Shown here one piece after another: positions 27,844-55,763 of a stretch of DNA of 64,000 nt. The stretch lies in NCBI GenBank assembly GCA_004431415.1, contig QPMI01000684.1, forward strand, positions 9,517 through 73,516. The letters are read 5' to 3'. The notes beneath the pieces were generated by a model, which saw nothing but the letters and a program-made list of their open reading frames with translations, did no database searches and had not been told where the DNA came from. A program made the translations under genes and the position numbers. Every line of letters starts with the position of its first letter. Position 1 is the first letter of the stretch. The stretch comes from Cyanophora paradoxa CCMP329 (taxonomy: Eukaryota > Plantae > Glaucophyta).

Positions 27844-28127
27844 ACACATAGTAAAATGCGGAGTTTTAACCCTCGGCTTAATCTTAATTGATTTTGTTGA
27901 TATATATCGTATATTCTATTTCAATCAATCGATAATCTGTGTATATCTTATCGAATATTCATTTATTTCGATTATTTTGTATTCTTTTCGATATTTTATC
28001 GTAAATTTCTCTTATTTTCCGATTAGTCTTACTGAGTTAATCGATAATCTGTATATATTTCCGAATAATATAACTGAATCTCAATTAGATCTTGCCTCTG
28101 GTTAAAACTCCGCATTTTACTATGTGT
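27844..28127. repeat. 284-bp imperfect terminal palindrome (mirrored at 55480-55763)
   Basis: 28-bp perfect arms 27844-27871 and 28100-28127; internal TCG/CGA boxes are mirror-symmetric about ~27985. Confidence 0.85.
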
Positions 28128-28379
28128 GATTGGTCTTTTTGTTAATTGATTTAATCGATATTATATTCATGTACTTTCTCGATTAAATTTAATTAAATTT
28201 AATTCATTTAATCGGAAATATATCGCTTAACTCGATTAAGATCCATAAATGATTCATTTGTTTAATAAAACAAATAGATCTCTTATTGAATTCAATCGTA
28301 ATTATACATGAAACTTATATGATTTTATCATTGTTTTATTGAGTCTAAGGGGGACCCTTAGGATTTTTGAAATAATTGG

Positions 28380-28655
28380 GTGTCACAGGTGTCACAGGTC
28401 CATCCCAAACTTTTGAAAATTCATTCTTTATAGGAGAAACTTTGGGATAAACCTGTGACACCTGTGACACATACCATATTTAGTAAGGATCTCTTTTATA
28501 ATGAAAAACTCAGTAATAATCTTATCTATGTATTTCTAATTAAATGAATAAATGATTTAATCGAGTGTCACGGGTGTCACAGGTCCATCCCAAACTTTTG
28601 AAAATTCACTCTTTATAGGAGAAACTTTGGGATAAACCTGTGACACCTGTGACAC
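28380..28655. repeat. Two 91-bp iteron-like hairpins with 185-bp period (GTGTCACAGGTGTCACAGGT...ACCTGTGACACCTGTGACAC); copies at 54951-55041 and 55136-55226
   Basis: Read directly at 28380-28470 and 28565-28655. Confidence 0.9.
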
Positions 28656-29097
28656 ATACCATATTCAGTAAGGACCTCTTATATTGTGAAAATCTCAGTG
28701 TTAGTTGGTGTAGTTGATTCAAAAAATGCATTTTATACTCTGATTCATTGTTATTTCCTGTGAAATTTGAGTCAACTCAACCCACTTAGTCAACCCTTGC
28801 ATTGAATTCGTAACAAAATCCATATACTATTACTACTTTTACGATTAATATGAGTCAACCTTGAGTCCACTTTAATTATAGGGGGAATCTTGGGCAGATG
28901 CTGAGGTTTTAGTGTAAGGAAATCGAACATTATTCTAATTATTTGACATTGCTTAATGTAGGGTGCATTCATATTTCGGCTACATCATACAGTAGAATTT
29001 CTATCGTAAAGAATGACCGGAATCCGGAAAATAATCATTGTAGAAAGCTTTTGTAATAAAAAAGGTAAATTACCCTGATTATCATTATATAAACCTA

Positions 29098-29496
29098 TCA
29101 AAACGGGAATCTATCATGTTTATGTCTCTCAGTCTTCTCAAATGTGAGGAAATTCATTGTTTTATCGATCTCATCTGCAACTGCTTGTGTTTTATGCTGA
29201 GCTTCTTTACCACAACTGAATATATCAATTGCTAACATGCCTTCATTGGAATAACAATGAGCTGTACAATGGCTTTCATCTAATAGCAGAACCAATGCAA
29301 AACCAGGAGGTGATAGTTTCCCATCAAATATCTCACAGTGTTTATGAACAATCCTAATACCTTGTCTCAATATTGCTTGTTCAAGGGTTCTCATAATCCA
29401 ATTACCAAGAAAGCTAACATGCTCATAACCTGTTGCTATAGCTGTTTTAGCCTTGTAATCAAGCATTACATGAAAGCCTCTGTATTTAGTCTCCAT
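29098..29496 (-). CDS. speD: S-adenosylmethionine decarboxylase proenzyme (small prokaryotic-type, pyruvoyl-dependent)
   Basis: PPGFALVLLLDESHCTAHCY..EG.LAIDIFSCG matches the AdoMetDC ESH self-cleavage motif and the D.F.CG motif; N-terminal G.H.+LD. Confidence 0.88.
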   Translation of the reverse strand: METKYRGFHVMLDYKAKTAIATGYEHVSFLGNWIMRTLEQAILRQGIRIVHKHCEIFDGKLSPPGFALVLLLDESHCTAHCYSNEGMLAIDIFSCGKEAQHKTQAVADEIDKTMNFLTFEKTERHKHDRFPF

Positions 29497-29525
29497 TAAG
29501 AATACCTTAGAAAAATTAATTAATC

Positions 29526-29798
29526 CTAATCGAACCTAATGCAAATATCCCTGTACTCTACTTTGATTGATGAAGTAGCCCTTTTCCTGTAAGCCTGAGA
29601 ATGCTTTTTGTTGCATTCCCTACAACCTGATCCCTTCACATGATTAAAGGGATATGTAAGGATCACCTTGTTACACTGCAAACATCTAACAGATACTTTC
29701 TCTTGAGCTTTGATGTAATGTGTCTCACTGTAATCGAATTTATCTTTACCATGAACTGTCATAGCAGCATCAATAAACTTTTTTGTTTTACTATCCAT
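29526..29798 (-). CDS. Zn-ribbon protein (DUF723/CapR-like repeat seen in viral homing endonucleases); no nuclease domain
   Basis: FI..A..VHG.DKFDYS...YIKA..KV...C..C......P.NH.KGSGC..C. Confidence 0.7.
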   Translation of the reverse strand: MDSKTKKFIDAAMTVHGKDKFDYSETHYIKAQEKVSVRCLQCNKVILTYPFNHVKGSGCRECNKKHSQAYRKRATSSIKVEYRDICIRFD

Positions 29799-29820: not shown

Positions 29821-30654
29821 TTATGGAGCAGTATCCTGCCCAAAAATGGGGAAATATCGATTTGTCCCATAGTATTCAGCATAGGTATTCTGCTTTGCAA
29901 TAAAATCGGTTCTCTCTGCAAACATCACACACTTGTAGATACCAAACTTGGTGGCTCTCACTAAGAACTGATAGTCTTCCAAACCGAAATTGACTCCATG
30001 ATAAGCAATTCCGAAATTATCATATGGGGTGATCACTACTGCAAAGTTGGGAGTTCCACCTTCAACTTGGCATACAGCATAAACATCTGGTGGGATATCC
30101 ACAACAACCTTGTAGTGATCACCAATCTCAACAAGAGAGTCTACTACTGCTGTTTGTTCATTCACAACAATGGGGAATATCTTGATTATATAGGGGGCAT
30201 TCATGCTGGGGACATAGGTTCGAATTCTTGTGTTGGGATCAATGGGATTGGGTTGATCATTCACAAATAAAGGCGCTCCAACAGCCCCACCAACCCTAAG
30301 ACCATCACCAATATAAGCTCCCCCCGATTTGCAGTTAATAGCTCCCGACCTAGATTCAAAAGAATAAGTAGACAGAGGATCTCCATAGCTATCTGGGTCT
30401 CCATAATGAGCAGAAAAGTTTGCATTTGTGACAAGTAGCTTAGTTGTCTTAACTATTCCATTATTTTTATCACATCTGAGTTCCTGTAATCTCAGCTTGT
30501 GGGTGGAACCAAATGTATTCATTGTAGGTTGGACCTCTGTGGATTGGAGACCCTCAACATCATCAAAAGTAGCATGCTGCAGAACATGGTTTGCTGGTGC
30601 AGCTAATGAAAGCTGAGGTGTAATAATTCGTTCAAGTGGGGGTTGCTCAGCCAT
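29821..30654 (-). CDS. Putative virion fibre/spike-associated protein, paralog 1
   Basis: 277-aa intact ORF; shares ELR.DKN.G.VKTT.LLVTNANF and SGGA.IG.G.RV.G with the neighbouring ORF. Confidence 0.5.
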   Translation of the reverse strand: MAEQPPLERIITPQLSLAAPANHVLQHATFDDVEGLQSTEVQPTMNTFGSTHKLRLQELRCDKNNGIVKTTKLLVTNANFSAHYGDPDSYGDPLSTYSFESRSGAINCKSGGAYIGDGLRVGGAVGAPLFVNDQPNPIDPNTRIRTYVPSMNAPYIIKIFPIVVNEQTAVVDSLVEIGDHYKVVVDIPPDVYAVCQVEGGTPNFAVVITPYDNFGIAYHGVNFGLEDYQFLVRATKFGIYKCVMFAERTDFIAKQNTYAEYYGTNRYFPIFGQDTAP

Positions 30655-30677: not shown

Positions 30678-31523
30678 TTATGGGGTTGGGTCATCAATTA
30701 CATCTGGCTCCATGTAAAACCCTGTAACTGAAAGAGTATCAGGAGTTACACCTCTAAGAGCTGATACAGCGGCTATATCTGTTCTCAAACCGATAAGAGT
30801 TATAGTATATAACCCAATATCTGTAACAAACAAGTCAAAGGTGAAATTATTATTATAAACACAGTAGCCATAACCGAAATGATTGTATCCCTGAACATTG
30901 AAATAGTATTTATGACCTACTTGATTGTTGTTGGCTCTACAAAGGGAAAGCATTGCAGATGGAATCGCAAGACCTCTCAGTACTCTTTTGGTTCCTTCAA
31001 TTAATTCCGAGTTTTCAAGAGTAACAGTATATCCAATGTAAAATTGAATTAATGGCTGCTGTGCAACAGGAGTATATAATCGAATTCGTTGGGGGTCTTC
31101 AACATTCTGTTCAAGAGTATCTGGGACATCATTATACGAAATTGAGGATGAAAGCTGACCTGAAACTCTGCAACCTCCACCAATAAAAGCTCCTCCTGAT
31201 CTCACAGTAACAGCAGCAGAATTCTTATCGAAATCAAGGGCTTTCAGATCAACACTGAAAGCATCTGGACCTCCATTAGTAGGTTGGAAGAAGTTTGCAT
31301 TTGTGACAAGAAGTCGAGTTGTTTTCACCACACCTGAATTCTTATCAGCTCTCAGCTCTTTAACTCGAATAATCGAATTTTTATCAAAGGAGTTACCATT
31401 GGAGTTGGGTCTCTCTGTGGATTCTAAACCACGAACCTCATCATTAACTTCATGCTGGCGAAAATGCATTGCAGGGGATCCAAGGGAATATATAGGCAGT
31501 TGAACTCGATTATATTCACCCAT
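30678..31523 (-). CDS. Putative virion fibre/spike-associated protein, paralog 2
   Basis: Likely start MGEYNRVQ at 31523; clear paralog of 29821-30654. Confidence 0.5.
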   Translation of the reverse strand: MGEYNRVQLPIYSLGSPAMHFRQHEVNDEVRGLESTERPNSNGNSFDKNSIIRVKELRADKNSGVVKTTRLLVTNANFFQPTNGGPDAFSVDLKALDFDKNSAAVTVRSGGAFIGGGCRVSGQLSSSISYNDVPDTLEQNVEDPQRIRLYTPVAQQPLIQFYIGYTVTLENSELIEGTKRVLRGLAIPSAMLSLCRANNNQVGHKYYFNVQGYNHFGYGYCVYNNNFTFDLFVTDIGLYTITLIGLRTDIAAVSALRGVTPDTLSVTGFYMEPDVIDDPTP

Positions 31524-31562: not shown

Positions 31563-31868
31563 TCAAGCCAAAGTGATTAAATTCGATCCAAGGGATTGGT
31601 AGGCAACTGAAAGTGATTGAAGGTTGGATGTCATTGATTTGATGTTGTTATCACATTCAGTGTATTTAACAACAGGGTCACCATATGCAGATTTGGCAAG
31701 GACATTAACCAAGAGGTTTTTATACTCATTTACAACTGGTGAGAGCTTGTTAGTTTGCTGAATCGTTTTTTCAACTGTTTGTAATGCGTTTACAAGGGTG
31801 ATTGTGTCAAAAGAAAGCGCAACAGGCTCAGTTGAATAGGTGGTTCCACCAAGAGGATAGGTCGCCAT
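31563..31868 (-). CDS. Hypothetical protein (101 aa)
   Basis: ATG-initiated ORF packed tightly between co-oriented viral genes. Confidence 0.6.
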   Translation of the reverse strand: MATYPLGGTTYSTEPVALSFDTITLVNALQTVEKTIQQTNKLSPVVNEYKNLLVNVLAKSAYGDPVVKYTECDNNIKSMTSNLQSLSVAYQSLGSNLITLA

Positions 31869-37935: not shown

Positions 37936-39492
37936 ATGCCCTTGAAAATCTGCCTGTCTTTATCAGGGGGAGGTGCAAGGGGCATTATCATAACCAGGCT
38001 GCTAAAAGAAATCGAAAATCGAACTGGCAGGAGAATAATCGATCTTGTGGATCTTGTGAGTGGAACTTCCACTGGTGGGATCATTGCAATAGGTTTGAAT
38101 ATAAGGCATCCTGATAAACCAGGTGAACCTAAACTCACAGCAAACGATTTACACAACATTTACCTAGCCCAACTGCCCTTGATTTTTGCAAATCCTCGAA
38201 ATATCATCGAAAATGCCCTTTTTAATACAAAATATGATGTGGGACCCTTGGAGACTGCAATCAATTCAGTTACTGGTGAATCACTAATACAGGATTCCCT
38301 AAAGGACATTGTGATTACATCCTTTGATACTCAGAATATGAAACCAATATTTATCACAAATGACAACAACTACAACTTTATGCCTTGTAAGATTGCTGCT
38401 AGGGCTACTTCTGCTGCTCCTACATATTTCTCTCCTGTAAGCATTGTTGATTTCAATCGGGGAGTATTTGTCTGTCTCATTGATGGTGCCATTTCTGGAA
38501 ACAATAATCCCAGTGTGTGTGGTTACAGCCATGCAAAGAAAATTTACAGTGATGATGATGATATTATAGTAATAAGTATATCTTGTGGAGAGGTGGACCC
38601 ACATTTAGAGTCTGATTATGTGGGTTATGCTTATGAGACTGTCAACAGCTGGGGCATTCTCTCATGGATTGCCTCAACAGATGGAAGCCCATTGATTAAC
38701 ATGCTCATGGCTGCAAGTGAGCTTTCTGCCCTTGATAAGATGGAGGAGTTGTTACCCTACAACTATGATCAGGATTATGGGAGATACTATAGGCTATCAG
38801 TCCCACTTCCAAATCATATAGTAAGCTCCCTGGATGACACTTCTAAAATCCCAGACATGCTTGCATTCACTGAAACATACATTGCAGCAAACAATGATAT
38901 GATCAATAAGCTTTGCAGCCTTCTAGTAGCAAACTACGAACTTAAGAACCCTACAAAGGCTTACATCTCATCCACTCTCACTACATCACCTCCTTTGGAT
39001 GCTAATTGGTATCAGCTTGCAGATGATGCCTTTACTGCCTCATCCTCTGTGACAGGTAAAGAGCCTTTCATGGCTAGACCTTCAGCATTTGGCTGGGAAG
39101 CTGGAGCCTTTGCTCCTGAACAGATATGGGAAACCCCCACTGAATACCTTCAAGTTGCTTTCCCATATACTTTTGAACTCTCTTCTGTGATTGCCTATGG
39201 ATCAGGGGACACCAATGCTTTTATTAAGACTTTCAATGTGGCAACATCCACTGATGGGATCAACTGGTCTTTTATTCGATCAGATGGGCAGAACAAAATA
39301 TATGTCTGTGAGAACATTAACAATGCTCACAACTCTGGTGATGTGGCTCTATTGAGTGGATTTCCTCTCAGCATCAAGGATGCTTTTTACATAGGTTTCT
39401 CTCTCAGAATTAAATATATTCGCATTTATCCCCTTGTGTATGTGAATGCTCCCACAATGAGAGTTGATTTCACAGGTGCCTTTATTCGATAA
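37936..39492 (+). CDS. Patatin-like phospholipase fused to a C-terminal F5/8 type C (discoidin) domain
   Basis: LSLSGGGARG, GTSTG nucleophile elbow, ATSAAPTYF, LIDGA; C-terminus FTASSS..EYLQV.F..FIKTF.+.TSTDGINW..KYIRIYP....MRVDF.G. Confidence 0.9.
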   Translation: MPLKICLSLSGGGARGIIITRLLKEIENRTGRRIIDLVDLVSGTSTGGIIAIGLNIRHPDKPGEPKLTANDLHNIYLAQLPLIFANPRNIIENALFNTKYDVGPLETAINSVTGESLIQDSLKDIVITSFDTQNMKPIFITNDNNYNFMPCKIAARATSAAPTYFSPVSIVDFNRGVFVCLIDGAISGNNNPSVCGYSHAKKIYSDDDDIIVISISCGEVDPHLESDYVGYAYETVNSWGILSWIASTDGSPLINMLMAASELSALDKMEELLPYNYDQDYGRYYRLSVPLPNHIVSSLDDTSKIPDMLAFTETYIAANNDMINKLCSLLVANYELKNPTKAYISSTLTTSPPLDANWYQLADDAFTASSSVTGKEPFMARPSAFGWEAGAFAPEQIWETPTEYLQVAFPYTFELSSVIAYGSGDTNAFIKTFNVATSTDGINWSFIRSDGQNKIYVCENINNAHNSGDVALLSGFPLSIKDAFYIGFSLRIKYIRIYPLVYVNAPTMRVDFTGAFIR

Positions 39493-40414
39493 ACTCCAAC
39501 TGAAAAGAATTATCGATTCCATTCATATCAATCAGTTCACCAAAGTAATCTTTAAACTCAACTGTGAGTTCCCTTATCACCAGGTTTCTGTCATTGATTT
39601 GAATAAATTCTGCATGTTCACCACTATGGTAAACATAGCCACCTATATCTTTACTCAATTGTAATCTAAGGATAGCTCCCTGGTTTTGTGGTTGCGATTT
39701 CGGAATTATATTGTGTCTACTTGCAAAGGGGGCAAGCTCTTTAATATGCATGTACAGATACTGCTCAGCATTCATATCAGACATCTTATTACTGGTGAAA
39801 TAATACTGCAAGGGCTTTGAGGAGAGTCTGGGTCCTGAGAAGGTGATTCCCCATGCTGGGTGATCAGGTGTAATAGGTTTGCCATCATACTTTAAAAGGT
39901 TCTCAGGTCGATATGGAGATCCACCAACAGGAGGAGTGCTATAATACCCAGTGGTGTATTCAGTAGAACTTACACCCAAAAGCTTCCCTATTCGCTTGTT
40001 GCTTGCAATAAAACGGAACTCATGGTTACTGTAAAACTCCACTTTATAGGTAGTTGGATTGTAGAATATCTTGAACTCAAAAAACACAGTTTTATCTGCA
40101 ATGGTTTTGAAGCTTGAATAGTTCAGCCCATAATTATAGGGATGTGTGACCCCAAAATGACCCTGGTTAATGTAGCCACTGGGAAGGGGATACACTTTCT
40201 GTGTGATGATTTCATTGTATGAACCATCTTGGTAGTTAAAATCAACTGTTAAATGATCAGTTCCCACACTGTTATAGATACTGTTTGGAATCTCTGCATA
40301 TAGAACCCTGCATTCCCTTGGTCTCTCTACTGGAGTTGTGAGAGTGACCCTGTAAGAGTTTTCATTTTGTCCTTGGCTTCTATCCCTGCTATCAATATTA
40401 ACAAGTCGATTCAT
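39482..40414 (-). CDS. Minor capsid (penton-like, single jelly-roll) protein 1
   Basis: N-terminal +NIDSRDR....N.Y.V.L..P......+..AEIPNS.YN; C-terminal YLY+.I.EL...I.EL.VEF.D..GELID.NG.D.SF.LEF, typical of PLV/NCLDV pentons. Confidence 0.8.
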   Translation of the reverse strand: MNRLVNIDSRDRSQGQNENSYRVTLTTPVERPRECRVLYAEIPNSIYNSVGTDHLTVDFNYQDGSYNEIITQKVYPLPSGYINQGHFGVTHPYNYGLNYSSFKTIADKTVFFEFKIFYNPTTYKVEFYSNHEFRFIASNKRIGKLLGVSSTEYTTGYYSTPPVGGSPYRPENLLKYDGKPITPDHPAWGITFSGPRLSSKPLQYYFTSNKMSDMNAEQYLYMHIKELAPFASRHNIIPKSQPQNQGAILRLQLSKDIGGYVYHSGEHAEFIQINDRNLVIRELTVEFKDYFGELIDMNGIDNSFQLEFIE

Positions 40415-42940: not shown

Positions 42941-43723
42941 ATGAATGATCTGGAAGAATTTAATGCTGGTGAAATGATAGAACCACCATTTCGTGTATTG
43001 GCAATCGGGAAATCAGCCACTGGTAAATCAGAAGCTGTAAAGTATTGGTTAAAGCAGTTACATGATGCCAAAAAGATTGATGTTGTTTTAGTTGTGAGTG
43101 GAACCAGCTTCAATCATTTCTGGGATAAAGTGGCAACACTGCAACTGGGAAAATGGGATGCCCCTTACATTGCTAAATTGCTAGATGAGAGGCAAGAGAA
43201 AATAGAAAAGGGTGAGCCTGTTAACCAGTTATGTGTAGTTTTAGATGATTTAATCGATAATGAGATAGTCGATCTCACAAGGGATAAAATAATCGGATCT
43301 CTGTATTCCAGAGGTCGCCATTCGAAAATATCCATTATCTGCATCACACAAAAGCTAAGGAAAGTCTCGTCGACTATTCGAGTTAATTCTGACTATGCTA
43401 TGTTTCTCAGTGCTGCTAATCGCAAAGAACTTGAAGCCATAGAGGAAGAATACAATATAATGCGAAATAAAGAGGATTTCTACAAGATGTTTGAAGAGTA
43501 TGTTCACTCCTATCAATATATCATTTGGTCCTCTGCAAACTACTCAGTTAAATACTATGTAGATAAAGCTGAGCTTGTGAAAGATTTCCCATTTCCTCGC
43601 TTCCACAGGAAGCCAAAAAAGAAAGAGGATGAACTGAAACCACCAGAAAAAGAGGAAGCCCCCAAAGAAGTGAAAAGCCAAGTCCATAGCAATAAATTGA
43701 TGCGATATAAACGCGGTTTATAA
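42941..43723 (+). CDS. A32-like (FtsK-HerA) genome packaging ATPase
   Basis: Walker A GKSATGKS, Walker B VVLDDL, RGRH.KISII.ITQ, IR.N.DY. Confidence 0.93.
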   Translation: MNDLEEFNAGEMIEPPFRVLAIGKSATGKSEAVKYWLKQLHDAKKIDVVLVVSGTSFNHFWDKVATLQLGKWDAPYIAKLLDERQEKIEKGEPVNQLCVVLDDLIDNEIVDLTRDKIIGSLYSRGRHSKISIICITQKLRKVSSTIRVNSDYAMFLSAANRKELEAIEEEYNIMRNKEDFYKMFEEYVHSYQYIIWSSANYSVKYYVDKAELVKDFPFPRFHRKPKKKEDELKPPEKEEAPKEVKSQVHSNKLMRYKRGL

Positions 43724-43751: not shown

Positions 43752-44486
43752 ATGCCTCCCAAACGAAAAATAGGGATCCCTGCTGGGGCTGTTGGCTATT
43801 CAGGTGGTGGAAACAATGGATCCATTAACACAGACCCACTGAAATTCAATGGTATGAATGAAGTGAAGCCCTCTCAACAACAAGAAGACCCCCTCAATGC
43901 TGCCTATGAGGAATCATTTGATGACAAAGCCCCACAGGCTTCAACCAGTGACCAACTCAACATTTCACCTGAAGCCTCAAAGATGAAGGCTGTTGCTGAG
44001 GGAGCCAGGCGAATTATTGGTGCTGCTGATGATAAAGGTTTAGGCTTGCAAGATCTATCACTGGCTCGCAAAGGTGAAGGTCTAAGTAAAGAATCAGACA
44101 AGGTTATTCAGTCTATGGCTGGTGAAGTCACATACAAGACTGCTCCCACTCAAAATATTCATCGAATTCCCAAGGCTCAATGGGATGAGATGACTGCTAA
44201 ACTCAAAGACCTGGAAGCCAAATCAAGTGCCTTGGAGCAGTATGTTACTGAGAAGAAAGAGAGAGCCAAGCTAAAGGAGATGCTTCGAAAGGAAGTTTAT
44301 AAAATGGGAATCACTGGTGTCCCGGATAAACAGTTTATTGCTAAGAAAGAGAACCAAATCGATGAGCAGGCAGTAGATGAAATGAAAACAAAGACCCAAA
44401 AGGGAACCATTGAACCTGGTGCCACCAAAGCTGAAGTAGAAAAGGGAGTTGCCCCAACAGTATATAAAAGACGAGTTTGGCTTTAA
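43752..44486 (+). CDS. Hypothetical protein (244 aa; N-terminal basic motif, coiled coil)
   Basis: ATG ORF in the structural block; MPPKRK resembles an NLS. Confidence 0.65.
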   Translation: MPPKRKIGIPAGAVGYSGGGNNGSINTDPLKFNGMNEVKPSQQQEDPLNAAYEESFDDKAPQASTSDQLNISPEASKMKAVAEGARRIIGAADDKGLGLQDLSLARKGEGLSKESDKVIQSMAGEVTYKTAPTQNIHRIPKAQWDEMTAKLKDLEAKSSALEQYVTEKKERAKLKEMLRKEVYKMGITGVPDKQFIAKKENQIDEQAVDEMKTKTQKGTIEPGATKAEVEKGVAPTVYKRRVWL

Positions 44487-44508
44487 TTATCTCTGTTTTA
44501 TTAGAGAT

Positions 44509-45097: not shown

Positions 45098-45319
45098 TCA
45101 CAGATAACTTTTGTAAATATGCTTTTGTTGTTTTTTGTTTGCATTCTCAGACACTGAAACAGTAATGTGAATGTTAACTGATCTATTTCTCTTTGGTTTA
45201 GCTGCATACATATTGTAACCTATCAATCTCTGTGACATTTCGATATATGCTCCAATATCTCCATGCTTAATGCATTTATCTAACTCAGTCATGGTCATCT
45301 CATCAAGAGTCTTTGCCAT
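45098..45319 (-). CDS. Small hypothetical protein
   Basis: MAKTLDEMTM..., from an internal ATG of ORF 45098..45394. Confidence 0.4.
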   Translation of the reverse strand: MAKTLDEMTMTELDKCIKHGDIGAYIEMSQRLIGYNMYAAKPKRNRSVNIHITVSVSENANKKQQKHIYKSYL

Positions 45320-45387
45320 TTTGTCTTCACTATACACAATCAAGTAAGCCTTAAGTATTCTTGTCAAATTTTGGTCTTTTCCGATAG

Positions 45388-45498
45388 GTGTCACAGGTGT
45401 TCACAGGTTTTTATCGTCCCCTGGTCATTTTTCTTTTTATAGCCCCCTAGATGGGATGGACCTGTGACACCTGTGAACAACACCATTTCCAGTAAGGC
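45388..45498. promoter_or_regulatory. Internal copy of the TIR iteron hairpin; candidate replication origin
   Basis: GTGTCACAGGTGTTCACAGGT...GGGATGGACCTGTGACACCTGTGAACA followed by ACCAT...CAGTAAGG, as in the TIR copies; ~40 bp from the helicase stop codon. Confidence 0.6.
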
Positions 45499-45539: not shown

Positions 45540-47866
45540 TTAATATTCAACATCCTCTCCATTGTCTTCTTGAACCCTTGTTATCTTTCGAAGTCCAATG
45601 TAGCCCCTTGCTCTGGTTCCCTGAATTCGTTTAACCTCTGATTTCACATTGAAGATTTCCCTTACTCTCTTCATCACAGAAACACATTCAACTTTATCAT
45701 CGACACTTCTGTATGATTTGTAAATGATATCACTCGAAACAAAGTCGTTTGCATTATGGGTAACTTCGAAATTATCCCTAAGCCATTCACCAATCTTATC
45801 ATTTTCAGCTATAAAGTTTATTCCCTGTTCAATAATCGATTGAGGGGGATTTCTTAAGATCTCTTCAACCTCTTTGTTCTTCCACATATCCAGTAATATC
45901 TTCATGTGAGCCATCTTATACTCATCATCATTGTGTAGAAGTGTGAACAGTGTTGGGTCAGCTTTCTTCTGACCAGCTTCAGGCTTCTCTCTGAATATAT
46001 TATTGAATCTCTGGTATGAAAGTCTTCTTTGAATTGCAAAGTCTGGTTTATTTATAGTCAAATTGTCATTAGTTGTAATGTAAACCTGGAACATTGGAGT
46101 GAGGATTACTGGGTCTTTGAACAAGGCTCTCACAGTCATTTCATTTCCACCTGTGACCTCCTTAATTTTGGAGATCTGCAGTTTATCACCATCTTCAGCC
46201 TCATTACTGAATACAAGTCGCTTTCCAAGGAGTTTGGCAAGTTCAGGAGTAGCATCTGATGAGTTCTTTTTAGGTTTGGTCCAATAGGATATTTCGAGAG
46301 GGCTATAATAAGCCCCTGAAATCTGTTTGCAGTATTCCTGAACAAGTGATTTACCATTTGCCCCAGCACCAGTCCACATGTAGAACTTCTGTGATTTTGT
46401 TGATCCACTGAGGGCAATTGCAATAGATGCCAGAAGGTAGTTTCGCTCTGCTGGATCATCTACAATCTCTCTATAAATCTGATTGAGATGGTCTACTTTC
46501 TTGGGGTCTACATTCTCAGTATAATCATAACCCACACTCTTGCTCACCATATCTTCCAGTTTCCCCTTTCTGAAAGTCATAGTTGTCAGATCAAATACAC
46601 CATTATCGAATCCAATTACATATGGAACTGTATCAATCTTTTCATAGAATTCATCATCATTCAGCAGAGGGAGCAGATCAGTCAGAAGGGATTTGCGATA
46701 TCCTGATTGTTTAAGATTTTTGGCAATAGAAATTAATGTTTTCGATTTCTCTTCGAAAGCTGTTCTATTCTCTTCATCCTTCAAAGCTCTTTGGCTATAA
46801 TGCACAGCCCTGCCAAGGTATTGAGGGACAACAAGGCAACTTATGTCTAGGTAAATCTTTTGGTTTGTGTCATCATGCTCCCAAATCCCAGTATCAGTAT
46901 TGAGTTTGAACCATGACTTTTTGGAGTATCTCCAAGTATGTTGTAGTACCTCTTTGCACACAAGACTGACATCATAATGAGCGCCTCCAGAACCAGCGGA
47001 CTTATCAATGAGATTGAAGATATCAGATTGCATTCCAATGAAGATAAATCGTTTTTTGCAATTGCCACTGTAGCTGGACACAATATACTTTTTATCTTCT
47101 CCTTTGGCTTTCATAACATACCAGTTATTCGATTCATGGGACCCATTGCAGCATGGGCAATTAAGTCCCTTATTAGCAGCATCAAAGTTAAAGCCCAGTT
47201 CAGTTTGAGAGATTATATTGGATGCATAAAGCCCATATCCACCAGCTCTTTAAGAATACTCTTTTCCAATGCATCATGTGAGGTAGCATTAGCAGTATAC
47301 TCACTCTTATAGATATAGTTCTCTGCAATCCACTTTTTAAACTCATCAGTAGGCTCATTGAAATCACAGGTATCATCCCATGGAGCAATTACCCAGGTCT
47401 TGTTGACACTGGGACAAACATTAATTAATCCAGAAGTTCCAGTTCCAGTGATTGTTTTCAGGTCAACCTTTTCAAAGCCTTTAAAGCCTGGAGCCTTATC
47501 GGTGATTTTGAGTTTAGTGAACTCCTCAGGTCGTTTAAAGTAGACATGATAGCCTTTTTTAGTTTTTGCCATGGGCTGATTGGCATCAAAGTCATCAGGA
47601 AACATATCCCGGAATTTCTCAAAGTTCTCCTCATCATCAAAGTCAATAACCATCATGTTGTCTGAGAGCAGAATGCCCCAAGATACATACTGATTAGTTG
47701 CCAGCGCTTCCTCATACTTTTCCCAGGACCAAGCACCTCCCTTATGCTTGAAAACTGGGTCTTTGCTGTCAGGTTTCACTGGGATAATCATGTTTTTGGC
47801 GAGTTCCTCATCAGAACGAAGCCAGTTAGCGAGCGATTTGATTAACTTGGTCTGTTTGGCGTTCAT
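45540..47866 (-). CDS. Prim-Pol primase + Zn finger + D5-like SF3 helicase; one gene split by a frameshift near 47215
   Basis: 47213..47866 has GILL...VIDFD and T.KGYHVYF; the helicase frame stays open upstream of 47114 through CPCCNGSHESNN; Walker A GAGANGKS, GKRLV..NE, IKE.TGG, RRL...F...F. Confidence 0.9.
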
Positions 47867-47884: not shown

Positions 47885-47923
47885 CCTTTTATATATATAG
47901 AAGATTTTTCTTTAAGTAGTTTT
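47885..47923 (-). promoter_or_regulatory. Conserved upstream motif AAAACTACTTAAAGA-N-TATATATAAAAG (putative early promoter); copies at 48349-48384 and 49212-49250
   Basis: Near-identical 39-bp motif before the ATGs at 47866 and 49208, with a variant before 48333. Confidence 0.7.
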
Positions 47924-48078: not shown

Positions 48079-48333
48079 TTAGACATGTTTCGATTTTCTC
48101 CCTCTGTTTGAGTAAGGGACATCATACAAATATTTGACAAAGCAGACTGCATTGGCTGCATACTTTCGCTGACATGAACTTGCTATTTTCATGGCTCTAT
48201 AGGTATCATCGGTTTGATATAGATCTCTTAGCTGTGTGGCTATTTTTTCGTTAAACTTTTTGATTTGAGCCTTACCTTTTTCAGTTTGCTGGTACCTCTT
48301 CATAGCTCTCTTCTGGGCTTCACTGAGTGGCAT
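48079..48333 (-). CDS. Small basic hypothetical protein
   Basis: MPLSEAQKRAMKRYQQTEKGK; preceded by the shared motif. Confidence 0.65.
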   Translation of the reverse strand: MPLSEAQKRAMKRYQQTEKGKAQIKKFNEKIATQLRDLYQTDDTYRAMKIASSCQRKYAANAVCFVKYLYDVPYSNRGRKSKHV

Positions 48334-48389: not shown

Positions 48390-49208
48390 TTAACCTCTCT
48401 GTCCAAATCTCTCAATATACATAAGTTTGAAATGCTTACCTAGCAATGCTACAAATGGTTCGATTTCCAAGGTCTCCCATGTTTTCTTGTCCTTATTCCA
48501 TCTGCAATCTAATCCTTTTGCGATATCTTTTTTAAGAAAAGGCACCTGAAACCCAGCAACCAATGTGTTTGTTGTACTGAGTTCTGCATACATTTCAATC
48601 AATGCAGATCTACCCTCTCTGAACCTCTCTATATCATCTCTGCGAAGATTATCCATTTTTGGAATGAACTGGTTGCACCAAATCAGGAAAAGATTAACTG
48701 CATGTCTATTCCTTGCTCTTTCTTGTTCTAATTCTCTCTGCCTTCGCTCTCTTTCTTCTAATTCAAGTTGTTTCTTTCGCTCCTCTGCTTCTTTCTGGAT
48801 TTGCTTTTTTCTTTCCAATTCCTCCTCCTTTATGATAATCCTGCACTTATTGCAGAAATTATCCTTACGGTTTTTATGTCGATCTCCGCATTTCTTGCAT
48901 ATATCTTCCCTCCTTGCACCATTTGGCATAAATCGTTTAATGCAGCAGTTGCCAACAAGAACCACAATCTTTTTATCCACATGCAAGATGTAGCATTGTT
49001 CTTCAATATGATGCTTGCAAGCACAGCTGTTTGAGTGTGGAGGAAGGCTTTCGTGAGTCAAATCATACTTTGCAAGTTTCAAATACAAAGAGTTCATATA
49101 TTTGCTTCTCCCCAAAGCGACAAAGTCTTTAAAGTTATTAGATCCACAAAGAAACATTAATGTAGCCTTCAAGCGTTCCAGAGAAGATGTTGCTTTGTTC
49201 TCTGCCAT
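48390..49208 (-). CDS. Zn-binding protein with coiled coil and C-terminal DUF5710-like domain
   Basis: CACKH.I...C.I...VG.CCIKRF; C..CG..H.NRKDNFC..C; VPF..KD.AK....RW....K.W. Confidence 0.7.
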   Translation of the reverse strand: MAENKATSSLERLKATLMFLCGSNNFKDFVALGRSKYMNSLYLKLAKYDLTHESLPPHSNSCACKHHIEEQCYILHVDKKIVVLVGNCCIKRFMPNGARREDICKKCGDRHKNRKDNFCNKCRIIIKEEELERKKQIQKEAEERKKQLELEERERRQRELEQERARNRHAVNLFLIWCNQFIPKMDNLRRDDIERFREGRSALIEMYAELSTTNTLVAGFQVPFLKKDIAKGLDCRWNKDKKTWETLEIEPFVALLGKHFKLMYIERFGQRG

Positions 49209-49319: not shown

Positions 49320-52300
49320 ATGCCCCGAATTAGCAACAGACTCATTAGAGAGAAGAAATGGGAACTCATGGGATTACTGGGAACACTGTATGCAGCCCAT
49401 GAAATTACAGAGGCTGAATATGACCGGGAAATCGGATTTATTTCAAGGGGCAGACCCACTTTAGCGAAATTAACCAGAAAAGCCAATAACCTCTATGATA
49501 AAGTTGAAACTCTTGATGAACTCGATCGCCTGAGGCAAATAGAACCAGAGGCAGAAGATGGTACAGCAATGAATGAATTATATCGCTGGCTCACTTACAG
49601 AGCCAGAAGGGAAGTTGTTGTTGATGTGATTGAATATTTAGATAGAATTGCAACCTCTCTACCAAAACGTTTAAGAGACAGTCTAGATCAATTCAGGGCA
49701 ATCAAAGTTCGCTTATCGTTTATCTGCAAGTTCGTAAAAGTCAGCAATCCACAGGTTTGGATATCGAAATACATTTACAGCGATTATTTTGTATTAACCA
49801 AATCGAGAAATATTCGAACTGAGCTGAATAAAGCAGCCCAAATGTGTCAGGAGCAGATGAATGTTGTTGATAGCTATCGATTGGAGAGAATCGAAATGCT
49901 CAGAGTTGCTATTATGAGTTATGCCCCAACTGGTGGTTGCTATGTTAAAACACCTGATTCAATTGCAGCCAAGAGAGCCACAGTGAATATTCGAAATATT
50001 GATGATTCTTGCTTCGAAAATGCAGTTTTGGCATGGATCCATAGGAAAGATGTGAATTCCCACAAGAGAAGTGAGCTAACACAATATCGCAAATGGAAAT
50101 ACTCACCAACTACATACAATCCTCTGGCTCTCAATTTCGATAACATCCCATTCCCTGTTCCCTGTGATGCTGAAATCATTGATAAATTCGAATCTCAAAA
50201 TGCAGGCATCAGCATAAACATATTTGGAATGGATCGAGATGTTATATATCCCCTACATCAATCCAGCAACCCAGGCAGAAAGCAAAAGATTAATCTCATG
50301 CTCATTCATGATGATGAAGGGAATGGTCACTATATTACAATCATGTCCCTTTCAAGACTTCTCAGAGTTGCCCTTGATAAAACCAAGGATCAAAAGTTAC
50401 ACTACTGTGACACATGCTTATCTCGATTCAGGTCTGAGGCTAAACTCACTGCTCATGTGGACTCAAACAGATGCATTGATTGGAGACTCTCAAAGGGAAT
50501 CACTCCTAAGCCTGAGACCACCATAGAGTTTGGACTGAAAAACCTCAGGAAAACTGTGTGGCTTCCTGTTGTGGTATACTGCAAGATTGAACATAGAAGC
50601 ATCCCCATTGATGCATCAAAATCCAAGAGAGAAGTCTCAGCAGTCAACATAAGAATAGTCACTGGGGCAGATGTTCAAGATTTTCGATTTGAGGGGCAGG
50701 ATCCAATGGGAGGTCTGTTTGAATGCTTGGAGTCCAAAGCAAGAGAACTAATCGATTTCCTGTTTACCAATATTCCCATGAATGAACTCACAGATGAGCA
50801 GAAAGCAATTTACAAGGCTACTAAACACTGTTACCTTTGCAGTGAGAGGTTCACTAAGGAAAACTTCAAATGCAGGGATCATGATCATCACACAGGCAAT
50901 TATATTGCTCCTGCATGCAGAAACTGTAATCTACATAGGAGAATCTCAAAGCAAACCAAAGTTGCAGTTGTTGTTGACCAAATGGATGAATGTGGGACAT
51001 TCATTTTCAGAAAAATAGCAGGCATGGGTGATAAAAAGCGAATCGAAATCCTTTCGAAAAACTTTGATCAATACCTTTCATTGCAATGGGGTCTTTACAA
51101 GTTCATTGATGCAAGTAATTTTATGGACTTTGGGGCTGCTGATGTAGATGACTTAATGGACAAATTCCAAGCCTTCAGAAGGCTTTCACACTCAGTATAT
51201 GGATTGGACCCAGTTCATTATGTATCTGCACCTGGGTTATCTTGGGATGCTATGCTTAGGACCACCAAGGCAAAAATAGAGCTTATAAGTGATGTAGAGC
51301 AATACGAATTTGTTGAGAGGGAATCAGGGGTGGCTTTGCAACAATGCCTTGTAGGTATGCTGAGGCTGATGGTGAGAACTCCCATATTATGCTGTTTGAT
51401 GCTAACAACTTGTATGGCTACTGCTTGAGTCAGCCTATTCCAGTTGGTGATTTTAGATGGGAGACCGAATTCAACCCACAAGATAACAGATCCAGTTTCC
51501 TGGAAGTTGATCTGGATTACCCAATTAGGCTGTTTCTAGATCACAGTGATTTCCCCCTAATTATAAACAAGAAAATAGTAGAATATGCAGAATTATCACA
51601 ATATCAAAAGAGCCTATTGGATCTCTCAGGAGAAGAGCTTGATAAGACCCCTAAGCTAACTGCAACCTTTGGTTCTGTGACAAACTATGTGATTTCTGAG
51701 CCTCTTCTACAGTATATTCTGACCAAAGGTGTGAAACTAAAGAAGTTCACAGGGTCCTATCATTTACTGTGGCTCCTGTAATGAAACCCTACATTGAGCT
51801 GAACACTGATATGAGAAGGAAAGCAGTGAATAAATTCGAGGCTGATTTCTATAAACTCATGAATAACTCAATCTATGGGAAATGCATTGAATCATGTAGA
51901 GGTAGATCTGTGGTTAAGATTGCCAACAGTGAGAAACTGTTTATGAAATATGCAGCCTCTCCTTTAGTGAAATCAACAAGTCCCATAAGTGAAAGGGCAG
52001 TTGCCTTTGAGTTTTACACAAAGCATGTGAAGCTAGATAAGCCTGTTGCAATTGGGGCTTATGTTTTGGATGCAGCCAAACTGCATAATTACAAGTTCTT
52101 CTATGATACTGTAGGTCCCAGTGGTCCAAAGCCAAGTTACTATTCCATGATACTGATTCCTTTTGTCTATACATCGAATCTAAGACCCTTGAAAAGATAT
52201 AGAGAATATATCCTATGCATTAGACCTTGGAGGGATTCAAGAATGACCCCAGGTAAATACAAAAATGAGATGCCAGGTTCTGCTATATTGGAGTATGTAG

Positions 52301-52560
52301 GTCTGAGAGCCAAAGTTTACAGTTTCAGAACTGCTGAGATTGAGAGAAGTAAGCTATCTGGGACTTCCACTGAGGAACTCCAATTCAATGATTTTAAGGA
52401 GTGTTTATTTGCAGGTATCAGCAAGACTGTGACTGCAAAGCAGAAAAGAAGGGCAGATCACACAATAATAGATACTGTGAGTAGAAGGGTTGCCCTAAAC
52501 TGCTTTGATGCAAAGAGATACATCTTACCAGATGGTATTAATTCTGTTCCTTTTAATTAA
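49320..52560 (+). pseudogene. Polinton-type protein-primed DNA polymerase B with EndoVII-like insert; about four frameshifts (real or consensus errors)
   Basis: C.LC..RDHDH.TG....AC..CNL; LDP.HY.SAPGLSWDAML; motif A DANNLYG; motif B KLMNNSIYGK; motif C HDTDS in a shifted frame at 52146-52160; PG..K.E, VGLR.K.YS, DAKRY. Confidence 0.9.
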
Positions 52561-52563
52561 GAG

Positions 52564-53948
52564 ATGCCAGCAACTGGAAGAATAGTAAGGAGAACCACTG
52601 AGCAACTGCAAGGTAACCTACTGCCTATCACAGTTCCAAAGGAGGAAAAAGGGGAATCTCGAATTGTCAAAAAGTCTGAGATGAAAGAGCTTGTCCCAGT
52701 AGAGATCCCAGTTGCTATTGCAGTGAAAGAAACTAGCAAGATTGCCAAGAGATTCTATGATGTGAGAACTGGTTACAAAGGGCTTCAAGCTATGAGGGCT
52801 GAGTTACCAGATGAATCCTATAAGCAGTTGCAAGAGTTCTATAAAAAACAGGAAGTTGTTCAGATCAATGCACCTGCTATATCTAGGAAGAGAGATCCCA
52901 TGGTTCCAATAAGGCAACCCCTTGATACCTATGTGATTGATTTGCTCTTTTTCCCAGCTTATAAGAAACAAAACAATGGCTATGATACCTTTATGACTGC
53001 AATGGAATCAACACTGAGAACTGGGTATATCATACCAATAAGAGATAAATCAGCTCTCACTACATTGGCTGCATTTAAACAGCTTGAGATGAGAGTAGCA
53101 AGACCCATAGTAAAGGTTCAATCAGATGCTGGGAGTGAATTCCAAAATCGAATATTCCAGGAGTATTTATCTAGTAAATACATAGAACACCAAGTGAGTG
53201 GAACTGCAGACCATAGGAGCCAAGGTCGAATTGAAGCCTTTAACAAGCAGATTAAGAGATTGATCACAAACTACTGCATTGCAATAATACAGCTAGATTC
53301 TTTGATGTGTTAGGTGATATTGAGTATAATTACAATAATACAGTTCACTCAGCTACTAAGATGAAGCCAGGTGAAACTACAGAGGAGCATTATAGGTATA
53401 TAGTAGGATTAGAAGATGAAAGATTCAAGAAATCAATAGCTTATCTTGATACCATGCAGCCTGGCATGTTTGTTAGAGTGAAAGTGGAGAAGAATCCCTT
53501 TGCTAAACAGGGTAACAATTGGTCTAGGATGGTTTACACTGTTGATAGTAGAGAAGGCTTTAAGTTTAAGCTAAAGAGTCCCACTGGAGAGATCATAGAT
53601 AACAGGTTTGCTTTCCATGAGCTGTTGCCTGTGAATGCAGTTGAGTATCTGGAAACCCCTACAGTAGATGCCTTAGAGCAAGCTAAAGAGGAAGCTAGGG
53701 TTGATGCTGCTATAAGAAGAGAGGGCATAGAAGCTGCTAATGAAGTCCCAGATAAGCCTTTGATAGAGGCTAGAAAGGAGAAGGCTGGCAAAGTTAACAG
53801 GGAACTCAAAAAGCTCACTATAGCAGGAACACAGAAACTTTCAGAAGTGAATAGCCAGAGATGGTATAATGACTTTCAGACTACTAAGGAGTCATATACA
53901 GCCCCTAAACCTCAAAGAACACTAAGAGAAAGGACCAAAACTAGCTAG
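52564..53948 (+). pseudogene. Retroviral-like (rve, DDE) integrase of Polinton type; one frameshift near 53283
   Basis: IDL, QSDAGSEF, IEAFNK.IK (D,D,E); continues YN.TVHSA..MKP and an SH3-like G..VRV...K..F.K...NWS..+Y.V; no chromodomain seen. Confidence 0.9.
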
Positions 53949-54427
53949 TTTGCTAGGCGAAAACTCGTTTTTTCCAAATATATGTATGACTGATATACAT
54001 ATATGCATATGATATACACATTGTCTTGTAGATCTTTTCAAGCGCTTCACAGCGATATGCAGAACGTTGCGATTTGATAATCTGGTGATGAGATACAAGC
54101 GTTTGAAGATGCCGATTATCGATTTTTCGAGATTTCGGAATGATGCATCATAATGATGTAATAATGATGTATCATAAACACATAACATATATATATCGCC
54201 GTGATCGTCATGATCTCCCGAGTTCGATGGTGTGTCATATATATCATATACATATGCATCGTCATTATGACATCATTTCGTAACATAACACGTCCGTCAT
54301 CGTCTTTTTTCCGCAGCGAACAGATAAGTGAACAGTTAACGAGACAACTATTGTAATAGTGTACTGCAACAACAATTGAAAACAAGATATGCGGGAAAGC
54401 TATTGAAAGACAATGAAGCAAATTGCG

Positions 54428-54526
54428 AACAATTAAGTGAACAGTTAAGTGGACACCTGTTGGGAGTAGGCAGTGTCTACTCGTTTATCGTGAAACGGTG
54501 TCCACTTAACTGTTCATTTAACTGTT
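54428..54526. repeat. Hairpin with 30-bp arms and a nested small stem
   Basis: AACAATTAAGTGAACAGTTAAGTGGACACC pairs with GGTGTCCACTTAACTGTTCATTTAACTGTT (2 mismatches); inner GAGTAGGC..GTCTACTC. Confidence 0.85.
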
Positions 54527-54701
54527 GACGAAAACCCATGCATTATGACATCATATCATTAAACCACATACAAAACACTAAAATGCATGTATCTCTTCAC
54601 CAACTCATCATGTGACAAAACCAAAAACAGATTCGGAATCCTCTTAACGAGGCCTGCCTGACGATGTAAGTATCATAGGCTCAATAATTCATATGTTTAT
54701 A

Positions 54702-55763
54702 AGCATCTCCCTTGATTCCCCCTATTATATAATATTTATATTAAAGTGGACTCAAGGTTGACTCATATTAATCGATAGTATAATGGATTTTGTTACGAAT
54801 TCAATGCAAGGGTTGACTAAGTGGGTTGAGTTGACTCAAATTTCACAGGAAATAACAATGAATCAGAGTATAAAATGCATTTTTTGAATCAACTACACCA
54901 ACTAACACTGAGATTTTCACAATATAAGAGGTCCTTACTGAATATGGTATGTGTCACAGGTGTCACAGGTTTATCCCAAAGTTTCTCCTATAAAGAGTGA
55001 ATTTTCAAAAGTTTGGGATGGACCTGTGACACCTGTGACACTCGATTAAATCATTTATTCATTTAATTAGAAATACATAGATAAGATTATTACTGAGTTT
55101 TTCATTATAAAAGAGATCCTTACTAAATATGGTATGTGTCACAGGTGTCACAGGTTTATCCCAAAGTTTCTCCTATAAAGAGTGAATTTTCAAAAGTTTG
55201 GGATGGACCTGTGACACCTGTGACACCCAATTATTTCAAAAATCCTAAGGGTCCCCCCTTAGACTCAATAAAACAATGATAAAATCATATAAGTTTCATG
55301 TATAATTACGATTGGATTCAATAAGAGATCTATTTGTTTTATTAAACAAATGAATCATTTATGGATCTTAATCGAGTTAAGCGATATATTTCCGATTAAA
55401 TGAATTAAATTTAATTAAATTTAATCGAGAAAGTACATGAATATAATATCGATTAAATCAATTAACTTTTAGACCAATCACACATAGTAAAATGCGGAGT
55501 TTTAACCAGAGGCAAGATCTAATTGAGATTCAGTTATATTATTCGGAAATATATACAGATTATCGATAGACTCAGTAAGACTAATCGGAAAATAAGAGAA
55601 ATTTACGATAAAATATCGAAAAGAATACAAAATAATCGAAATAAATGAATATTCGATAAGATATACACAGATTATCGATTGATTGAAATAGAATATACGA
55701 GATATATCAACAAAATCAATTAAGATTAAGCCGAGGGTTAAAACTCCGCATTTTACTATGTGT
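54702..55763 (-). repeat. Right TIR (~1.06 kb)
   Basis: Ends ...CCGCATTTTACTATGTGT, the reverse complement of 27844 onward. Confidence 0.95.

Follow-up and report, generated by a model that had tools for sequence, protein, structure and literature searches.

An AT-rich element of 27,920 bp (positions 27844..55763) in the 64,000-nucleotide window of Cyanophora paradoxa DNA that we analyzed is, with a probability of roughly 60%, an integrated copy of a multi-copy virus family that has a double-jelly-roll capsid, lacks a maturation protease and carries a proofreading-dead protein-primed polymerase (pPolB), likely partnered with a primase-helicase. The GC content of the element is 38.6%; the 2-kb stretches adjoining it on its two sides have 57.6% and 82%. 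Its TIRs (~1,030 bp) are 97.8% identical over 1,035 nt, with 1,016 matching bases out of 1,026 aligned. The TIR palindrome occurs a fifth time inside the element; this internal copy has a 25-bp exact arm in common with the TIRs and is a candidate origin or module boundary (Table 1). No part of the element matched Rfam, and none of 18 element proteins was present as an exact sequence in a collection of 15 billion proteins.

Table 1. Features of the element (window coordinates)
Feature	Position	Strand	Evidence or remark
Left TIR	27844..28876	+	subterminal end-motif copy; two 91-bp palindromes (28380-28470, 28565-28655)
Predicted AdoMetDC homologue, prokaryotic-type (class 1b), 132 aa	29098..29496	-	self-cleavage ESH motif
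Zinc-finger protein, 90 aa	29526..29798	-	resembles phage endonuclease accessory domain; PHROGs E ~3e-9
277-aa protein, likely structural	29821..30654	-	no family in Pfam/PHROGs; paralogue of 30678..31523 gene, 34% identity
281-aa protein	30678..31523	-	paralogue of 29821..30654 gene
101-aa ORF	31563..31868	-	ORF list
Fibre, 2,006 aa	31872..37892	-	Pfam/PHROGs S74 at C terminus
Patatin phospholipase-discoidin fusion	37936..39492	+	GGGARG, GTSTG and DGA motifs
Likely penton (minor capsid protein) 1	39482..40414	-	Atlas look-alikes; DUF5901 E 0.008
Probable penton 2	40444..41454	+	position; weak similarity to penton 1
Double-jelly-roll MCP	41508..42875	+	fold search; capsid relatives
A32-type packaging ATPase	42941..43723	+	Pox_A32 E 2e-11; Walker A/B and Arg motif
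244-aa protein without Cys	43752..44486	+	ORF list
Two small ORFs, 90 aa and ~80 aa	44509..45010	+	~80-aa ORF has PRGRP motif, presumably AT-hook-like
73-aa ORF	45098..45319	-	ORF scan
Fifth TIR-palindrome copy, internal	45386..45476	.	just downstream of helicase gene
Prim-Pol (AEP) and D5-like SF3 helicase	45540..47866	-	2 pieces, one frameshift near 47219
39-bp repeat	47885..47923	-	second copy 49212-49250; TATA-rich motif upstream of three leftward genes
Basic 84-aa ORF	48079..48333	-	ORF scan
Cys-rich 272-aa protein	48390..49208	-	DUF5710 match, weak
pPolB	49320..52560	+	4 pieces, five single-base gaps
rve integrase	52564..53948	+	D-D-E triad; 2 pieces, one frameshift near 53282
Strong non-coding palindrome	54428..54526	.	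inside right end
Right TIR	54740..55763	-	two palindromes (54951-55041, 55136-55226)

Pfam and PHROGs searches detected AdoMet_dc, Peptidase_S74, Patatin with F5_F8_type_C, Pox_A32, D5_N with DUF5906, and Prim-Pol domains, and gave weak matches for DNA_pol_B_2 and rve. Together with motifs and a fold model of the MCP, these results bear out much of the initial annotation, which had described a TIR-bounded 27.9-kb AT-rich element, with ends and genes where we find them, that encodes an MCP, ATPase, pPolB, rve integrase, AdoMetDC, patatin-discoidin protein and 6-kb fibre gene. It had also listed a fused Prim-Pol/SF3 protein; both domains are there, but a frameshift splits the gene in the element sequence. 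The predicted AdoMetDC homologue (Pfam E = 1.8e-11) matched AdoMetDC in the PDB, and we assign its substrate by homology alone. The fibre contains a 12-residue His-containing tandem repeat and an internal duplication, and ends in an S74 intramolecular chaperone.

The MCP model (pLDDT 45) matched double-jelly-roll capsids (Foldseek E = 2e-12; in VIA, Z 15.0, rmsd 8.9, 304 aligned). This low-confidence model was nearer to NCLDV-type capsids (Z 15) than to those of mavirus and Sputnik (Z 8.3 and 8.2). Its Atlas neighbours are mostly capsid clusters labeled Nucleocytoviricota, and they do not place the MCP. By sequence, the nearest capsid is another C. paradoxa protein (60% identity), and only two relatives were found among 1.84 billion representatives. 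A PDB sequence search with an MCP profile returned no match, scans of metagenome contigs with MCP and ATPase alignments gave nothing, and the viral contigs scanned contained no locus related to the MCP, ATPase, SF3 or pPolB piece. Relatives were too few to build a tree of the MCP and ATPase against the TsV, PgVV, Dino and Trimcap clades of Aquintoviricetes. In direct sequence searches, neither the MCP nor the ATPase gave a match that would place it in the Mavpol or GKS1 clusters. Almost without relatives outside C. paradoxa, the capsid could define an unplaced lineage.

The two pentons that had been proposed stand on different footings. Penton 1 is likely, with language-model look-alikes in the Atlas at 0.97-0.98, including DUF5901 and Sputnik V18/19 clusters, for which recognition was below threshold. 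Penton 2 is probable from its position and because it weakly resembles penton 1 (z 3.5, a score reached by one of 500 shuffles); its model (pLDDT 39) gave no fold match. A profile from six penton-like ORFs matched neither protein.

The reported absence of an adenain/Ulp1 protease holds in a controlled search. We built a profile from three protease-like ORFs, which recovered five further examples in other loci (E up to 6e-7); against the 559 six-frame pieces of the element, it reached a best E value of 0.15. A motif scan of the element was also negative, and the 244-aa protein was ruled out as a cysteine protease because it lacks Cys. A blank Pfam result was rejected as a test of absence, since two protease-like control ORFs escaped Pfam as well. 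A protease was present in 8 of the 14 loci gathered by polymerase similarity.

Run contigs and tables in published papers revealed many close copies, the sister copies for which the initial annotation had suggested a search of the assembly. At least half of the sampled element words occurred in each of 19 DNA or unlabeled runs under one species label, and contigs from three of these runs covered all 30 bins of the element, with hundreds of variant sites. Run X20, perhaps an RNA run, is labeled as a different species and has a share of 0.14; it covered 20 of the 30 bins, at a depth of 1-3, and was excluded as evidence. No RNA run was listed among those with element words, which has no bearing on expression. 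The ratio of one contig to two minor joints was ~11-12 in three runs, a rough hint of copy number that assumes single-copy joints. Published counts give 366 capsid hits in C. paradoxa, in two clusters (PMC10120064, PMC12220804). Among 40 rows listed, 30 of the 38 coding differences from sister copies are synonymous, compared to an expected 22%.

The element sequence might be a composite of collapsed or recombined sister copies that joins two host loci. This is a serious possibility, if short of an even chance, and is compatible with an integrated virus. The element had been called complete-looking; its ends and gene set agree with that, but frameshifts break three replication genes and a comparison of the junctions revealed no target-site duplication at the element ends. 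As the duplication is absent, left and right flank may derive from two loci. They differ sharply in GC content and have no similarity to each other, and a signal-peptide ORF begins one base from the end in the left flank, while the right flank looks unrelated. In addition, several element letters occur in none of the counted contigs, and no contig spans the full element. Against a composite, the TIRs pair end to end with 10 differing sites, and the compact gene order is colinear with intact relatives (P0004 across pPolB). Moreover, EMALE target-site duplications are sometimes only 1 bp, and end erosion could mask one. If the sequence is a composite, this exact gene order and complete copy might be found at no single locus.

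The pPolB of the integrated virus consists of an N-terminal region that may serve as terminal protein, a vOTU domain with its Cys and His, an exonuclease domain, an endonuclease-VII-like insert, and polymerase motifs A-C. The Exo I-III residues are missing and ~95 aa are deleted from the exonuclease domain, although its scaffold remains. The intact, colinear relative P0004 has the same loss, while 17 of 17 outside relatives keep the Exo motifs. Judged from sequence, this is likely a further independent loss of proofreading among these small viruses. The closest relatives of both pPolB and integrase are of Polinton type (Maverick-Polintons/Gosseviruses). In a quick tree of 16 rows, in which P0006, P0008 and P0017 were left out and the element row was under half filled, the element and P0004 had a long stem and the donor was not picked out. 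Exonuclease loss goes with helicase gain in mavirus and PLVs, and Krupovic et al. (2024) proposed that the helicase compensates for the loss, on the basis of two cases in which the domain was already mostly or wholly gone (PMC11161782). The element family could represent an intermediate state of exonuclease loss, open to direct assay.

Alternatively, the Prim-Pol/SF3 gene could be a passenger: a replicase cassette, mobile in its own right and equipped with a copy of the origin hairpin, would have entered a pPolB-integrase virus, and the exonuclease loss would be unrelated to it. We consider this doubtful. The TIR-like palindrome at the 3′ end of the gene and the 39-bp direct repeats upstream of it fit such a cassette, as does its summed contig depth of about a quarter of that of the capsid genes, a weak hint. 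The Barth preprint describes second replicases bracketed by repeats, and one of its cases is a C. paradoxa contig that carries a lone AEP element. Among 156 glaucophyte elements (Bulzu 2025; PMC12220804), D5_N occurs in 40 and a PIF1 helicase in 34, and pairing with the AEP-SF3 helicase may therefore not be fixed. On the other side, the GC content (0.39) and CpG ratio (0.30) of the gene match the rest of the element and the hairpin shares its arm with the TIRs; the association is therefore not recent. A helicase relative detectable by BLAST was found in none of the 14 partial loci gathered by polymerase similarity.

CpG is strongly depleted in the element (observed/expected ratio 0.36; 0.26 across codon boundaries); the flanks are at 1.14-1.26, and 14 viral loci span 0.43-1.10. 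Methylation and silencing of viral genes are reported for C. paradoxa, whose genome also contains giant-virus insertions (PMC12344493). Of 19 ORFs, 8 have the motif TAAAAG, chosen by eye before testing, in the 30 nt upstream, against a mean of 0.6 in shuffled sequence (none of 5,000 shuffles reached 8). The mavirus motif TCTA was not enriched (5 of 19 ORFs; 582 of 5,000 shuffles). TAAAAG also resembles a host TATA box.

For an integrated virus, these features suggest the following life cycle. The rve integrase would insert the linear genome into host DNA, where it would stay silent under CpG methylation until activated, likely by a co-infecting giant virus transcribing from the short AT-rich TAAAAG promoters. 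pPolB would use its terminal-protein domain, which the vOTU protease would release, to prime at the TIR ends, and Prim-Pol/SF3, loaded at the 91-bp palindromes, would unwind the template. Driven by the ATPase, the genome would be packaged into a capsid built from the MCP, two pentons and a long fibre; the patatin-discoidin protein would help entry and AdoMetDC would boost polyamine supply. Selection and open structural frames indirectly suggest that virions may still form. Given an integrated virus, we lean slightly toward dependence on a giant virus, regard autonomous nuclear replication as possible, and consider it improbable that virions are no longer made.

It is on the whole unlikely that the family is an autonomous nuclear virus or self-synthesizing transposon that relies on host RNA polymerase II for transcription and needs no giant virus as helper. 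The element encodes its own polymerase, primase-helicase and integrase, a TATATATAAAAG-like motif common to three leftward genes resembles a TATA box, the CpG depletion shows a long nuclear history, and TsV is a nuclear lytic PLV. However, structural genes are separated by spacers of 3-65 bp, and only a few bases lie between the motif and the start codon, so that a Pol II promoter would have little space. Giant-virus insertions in the host also argue for a helper, and several PLVs depend on one.

All seven frameshifts fall within pPolB, the integrase and the primase-helicase, and each is one missing base; for those at 47219, 51318, 51744 and 53282, at least one run has the missing base in all of its counted contigs. 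Assembly error is the most likely cause. It is quite improbable that the frameshifts are true mutations in a fossil copy that is decaying: the breaks in three replication genes and the strong CpG loss, as expected after deamination, would fit, but short-read contigs carry all seven bases, no structural gene, the 6-kb fibre included, has an in-frame stop, and Bellas et al. call such breaks usual assembly artefacts (PMC10120064). The host grows axenically and carries 366 capsid hits, which it methylates, so one could try to induce and purify a glaucophyte virus and test whether it has a giant-virus helper.

The element is an endogenous Polinton-like virus with a divergent capsid, as had been proposed, but its lineage is not undescribed and its mix of modules is not unusual. 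Bellas 2023 Table S2 lists the 60%-identical capsid, P0001, and a closer sister for C. paradoxa; by eye, 67 of the first 79 residues of the sister match the element MCP (PMC10120064). Among the 156 glaucophyte elements of Bulzu 2025, rve occurs in 85, PF03175 in 49, lipase in 89, AdoMetDC in 66, S74 in 37 and a protease in none; two match the MCP-POL profile, and the text mentions patatin-discoidin fusions (PMC12220804). pPolB and rve without a protease are common in protist elements, as in Bulzu Table S6, where 1,850 Alveolata elements include 634 with PF03175, 607 with rve and four with a protease (PMC12220804). The gene mix is thus ordinary for protist PLVs. Polinton-type polymerase and integrase on a PLV capsid agrees with the relatives we found, but the Barth preprint now describes such mosaicism of replicase and capsid as the norm. 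The catalogued C. paradoxa elements have the same capsid family and gene inventory as ours (PMC10120064, PMC12220804); in gene content all genes thus fall within a described group, but not a named one. The earlier catalogue consists of supplements only; its heading is "Iterative HMM searches", and the head row gives no group name. We found no named clade for the capsid in the literature.

The initial annotation missed the exonuclease loss, the fifth hairpin copy, the CpG depletion and the mostly synonymous sister differences, and the accessible parts of Bellas 2023 and Bulzu 2025 contain no remark on a dead exonuclease, palindromes or CpG loss (PMC10120064, PMC12220804). We tentatively put forward, as possible rather than probable, a joint proposal: the family would be a glaucophyte-specific deep Polisuviricotina lineage outside all named classes and could still be induced from its hundreds of methylated copies in an alga that can be cultured; its pPolB would represent a third, independent proofreading loss, seen at a halfway stage, together with a captured primase-SF3 module that has its own copy of the origin hairpin.

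With its double-jelly-roll MCP, A32-like ATPase and terminal repeats on a genome within 14-40 kb, the element is a PLV in the broad, Polisuviricotina-type sense, and it has the pPolB and rve integrase that serve as a criterion for Polintoviricetes. None of its 26 ORFs had a Pfam match to Mriya48, HUH endonuclease or VLTF, genes of the NCLDV-related small viruses (Mriya, Zora, Zephyr, GKS2). Like Maverick-Polintons and Gosseviruses (Polintoviricetes), it has TIRs, a pPolB with vOTU and endonuclease-VII-like insert, rve, ATPase and a double-jelly-roll capsid. Unlike them, it lacks the adenain/Ulp1 protease and has lost the exonuclease, its capsid has no detectable similarity to theirs, and their 5-6 bp target-site duplication is absent, maybe from discordant flanks. 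With the Aquintoviricetes PLVs Gezel-14T and TsV-N1 and the Tlr1-type pPolB-S1H elements it shares a protease-less morphogenetic module, a lipase, a phage-like fibre and an exonuclease-less polymerase paired with a helicase; however, its helicase is a separate AEP-SF3 protein, its integrase is rve, and its capsid was not found in these groups by sequence (two matches in all). Mavirus and EMALEs (Virophaviricetes) differ in having a protease, the mavirus TCTA motif is not enriched in the element, and virophage capsids rank below NCLDV-type ones in comparisons with our poor MCP model. Nevertheless, they resemble the element in combining a pPolB that lacks a working exonuclease with an SF3 helicase and rve integrase, and in forming AT-rich multi-copy insertions in a GC-rich protist; mavirus has lost the greater part of its exonuclease domain, whereas the element keeps its scaffold.

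The element belongs to a glaucophyte virus family that is real, probably recently active, and catalogued but unnamed. The initial annotation's outline of a TIR-bounded, AT-rich element of 27.9 kb was borne out. The terminal inverted repeats (TIRs) of this 27,920-bp element are ~1,030 bp long and 97.8% alike. Its GC content is 38.6%, whereas the 2 kb on either side have 57.6% and 82%. Of the 25,863 bases that separate the TIRs, 23,806 lie in ORFs. As we found no target-site duplication at the element ends, and the left and right flanks are dissimilar to each other, this copy may join two loci.

One base outside the left TIR begins a host ORF whose start resembles a signal peptide and in which kelch-like repeats are visible by eye. 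It runs towards fibronectin-III repeats identified with Pfam, and its upstream region was removed by insertion or junction. Further left, an identical 284-bp direct repeat occurs twice, 12.4 kb apart, around a stretch with lower GC and few long ORFs, possibly marking the ends of another mobile element. The right flank contains two near-identical GC-rich stretches ~1.9 kb apart.

Features in the window
Feature	Position	Strand
Element	27844-55763	
Left TIR	27844-28876	
Host ORF beside left TIR	27438-27842	-
Fibronectin-III repeats	20494-24434	-
284-bp direct repeat, copy 1	4813-5096	
284-bp direct repeat, copy 2	17191-17474	
GC-rich stretch 1	61123-61212	
GC-rich stretch 2	63001-63099	
Fibre-gene tandem array	34389-34850	
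Internal palindrome adjoining helicase	45386-45476	
Skipped stretch 1	44493-44984	
Skipped stretch 2	49022-49198	
Skipped stretch 3	54254-54567	

Family scans, which covered 26 and 24 ORFs, confirmed the proposed AdoMetDC, S74-tipped fibre, patatin-discoidin, A32 ATPase, Prim-Pol, D5-like SF3 helicase, PolB (pPolB), and rve genes. The 455-aa ORF, the putative major capsid protein, had no Pfam match. Its structural model, although of low confidence (pLDDT 45), matches double-jelly-roll capsids, among them those of iridovirus and PBCV-1, and its Atlas neighbours agree. The capsid assignment stood; of the two pentons annotated with it, the first is likely and the second, whose fold search yielded no clear match, only probable. 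Within the fibre gene, a 36-nt tandem array encodes a 12-residue His-x-His repeat, and related H-x-H-x-W motifs occur elsewhere in the same protein. The repeat may bind metal, as in phage fibres.

Since Pfam missed control ORFs, Pfam alone was not a valid test for protease absence. We built a profile from three ORFs with His-Trp and Gln-Cys-Gly motifs, which we take to mark protease-like ORFs, and with this profile five more ORFs were detected at other loci. In the element, the best match among 559 six-frame pieces had an E value of 0.15, and gaps big enough for a protease gene held only small unrelated ORFs or low-complexity DNA. In this controlled search, the reported lack of an adenain/Ulp1 protease ORF held. 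Outside the element, one ORF (L005:2740-4248) apparently fuses a protease-like N terminus, an rve integrase, and a chromodomain.

The suggestion that the element may be undescribed did not survive. Only two capsid relatives were found among 1.84 billion representatives, a Cyanophora paradoxa EukProt protein (60%) and a 37% relative. In Bellas 2023 (PMC10120064), Table S2 contains the same C. paradoxa protein along with a closer sister; Table S4 gives 366 capsid hits for this species (272 + 94, 'Iterative HMM searches'). Table S6 of Bulzu 2025 lists 156 glaucophyte elements, with 0/156 in nine protease columns, 49 with PF03175, 85 with rve, 40 with D5_N, eight with Prim-Pol, 34 with PIF1, 37 with S74, 89 with lipase, and 66 with AdoMetDC; only two matched its Polinton/PLV capsid profile (PMC12220804). 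That paper also records AdoMetDC in cryptophyte Polinton-like viruses (PLVs). Given these tables, both the family and its gene mix were already catalogued, and the mix is ordinary. We found no dedicated description of the family in the literature; Cyanophora is absent from the main text of the 2026 framework preprint, whose supplements could place this capsid. What is of interest is the isolated capsid and the half-lost proofreading domain of pPolB.

In this polymerase the vOTU residues Cys and His are present, as are an endonuclease-VII-like insert and polymerase motifs A, B, and C; the Exo I and Exo II aspartates are missing. At the Exo III region the enzyme has 18 residues compared to 112-157 in relatives, a shortening that removes Exo III. 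Because all three losses are common to P0004, an intact pPolB relative (1,083 aa, 46%), exonuclease loss is a lineage trait. The motifs were retained in 17/17 outside relatives, three of which are near-duplicates, the viral loci having been gathered with non-exonuclease patterns. Other cases of a lost exonuclease, mavirus (with SF3) and pPolB-S1H fusions, are covered by Krupovic 2024, where compensation by helicases is proposed (PMC11161782). In the titles and abstract openings of four papers on the subject, no case of an inactivated but retained exonuclease is apparent. We count the loss in this pPolB as new.

Seven frameshifts split the Prim-Pol/SF3, pPolB, and integrase genes; the structural genes contain no internal stops. 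At each frameshift, short-read contigs carry one extra base, and at four of the seven this base is present in all counted contigs of one or more runs. These breaks may be damage specific to this copy; assembly error, reported as the cause in comparable elements by Bellas et al. (PMC10120064), is the likely explanation. Sister copies, which the initial annotation had proposed seeking, are represented in contigs of sequencing runs. Of the 24 runs listed, 19 contain at least half of the sampled sequence words, all 19 under one species label. Among the best-supported 40 of 694 differences from the sister copies, 38 are coding and 30 of those synonymous (one being stop-to-stop), a sequence pattern that points to purifying selection, capsid-side genes included. 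Low-depth contigs skip three stretches of the element, which shows that in some sister copies these stretches are deleted or replaced.

Each TIR carries two copies of a 91-bp palindrome, and a fifth copy lies beside the helicase; its folding stability was reached by 0/200 shuffles. Internal repeats around second replicases, including a C. paradoxa example, were described by Barth 2026, and thus partly anticipate the internal copy. For the whole element, the observed/expected CpG ratio is 0.36; it is 0.20 in pPolB-integrase and 0.26 across codon boundaries, and TpG/CpA is in excess. The flanks have ratios of 1.14-1.26, and 14 viral loci range from 0.43 to 1.10. This depletion is consistent with a long history in a host in which viral genes are methylated, as happens in C. 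paradoxa (PMC12344493). In contrast to the depleted coding part, the left TIR is undepleted (0.98), which suggests that CpG-containing motifs are kept for function. TAAAAG, a motif chosen by eye, lies upstream of 8/19 ORFs.

The component genes and their motifs are observed. By analogy with known families, the rve integrase would mediate integration, replication would be protein-primed at the genome ends with vOTU freeing the terminal protein, the ATPase would package the genome, and the fibre would mediate attachment, with the lipase aiding entry. More tentatively, the helicase might load at the palindromes and compensate for lost proofreading, a giant virus might drive transcription, and AdoMetDC might supply polyamines; some viral homologues are described as acting on ornithine or arginine instead. 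Against this scheme we counted the lower contig depth over the helicase, the variable helicase inventory within the family, and the locus structure, possibly a join of two loci.

Polintons and mavirus both carry a protease, in which the element differs from the two. It shares pPolB plus rve with Polintons and an exonuclease-less pPolB plus SF3 with mavirus; broadly defined, it is a PLV.
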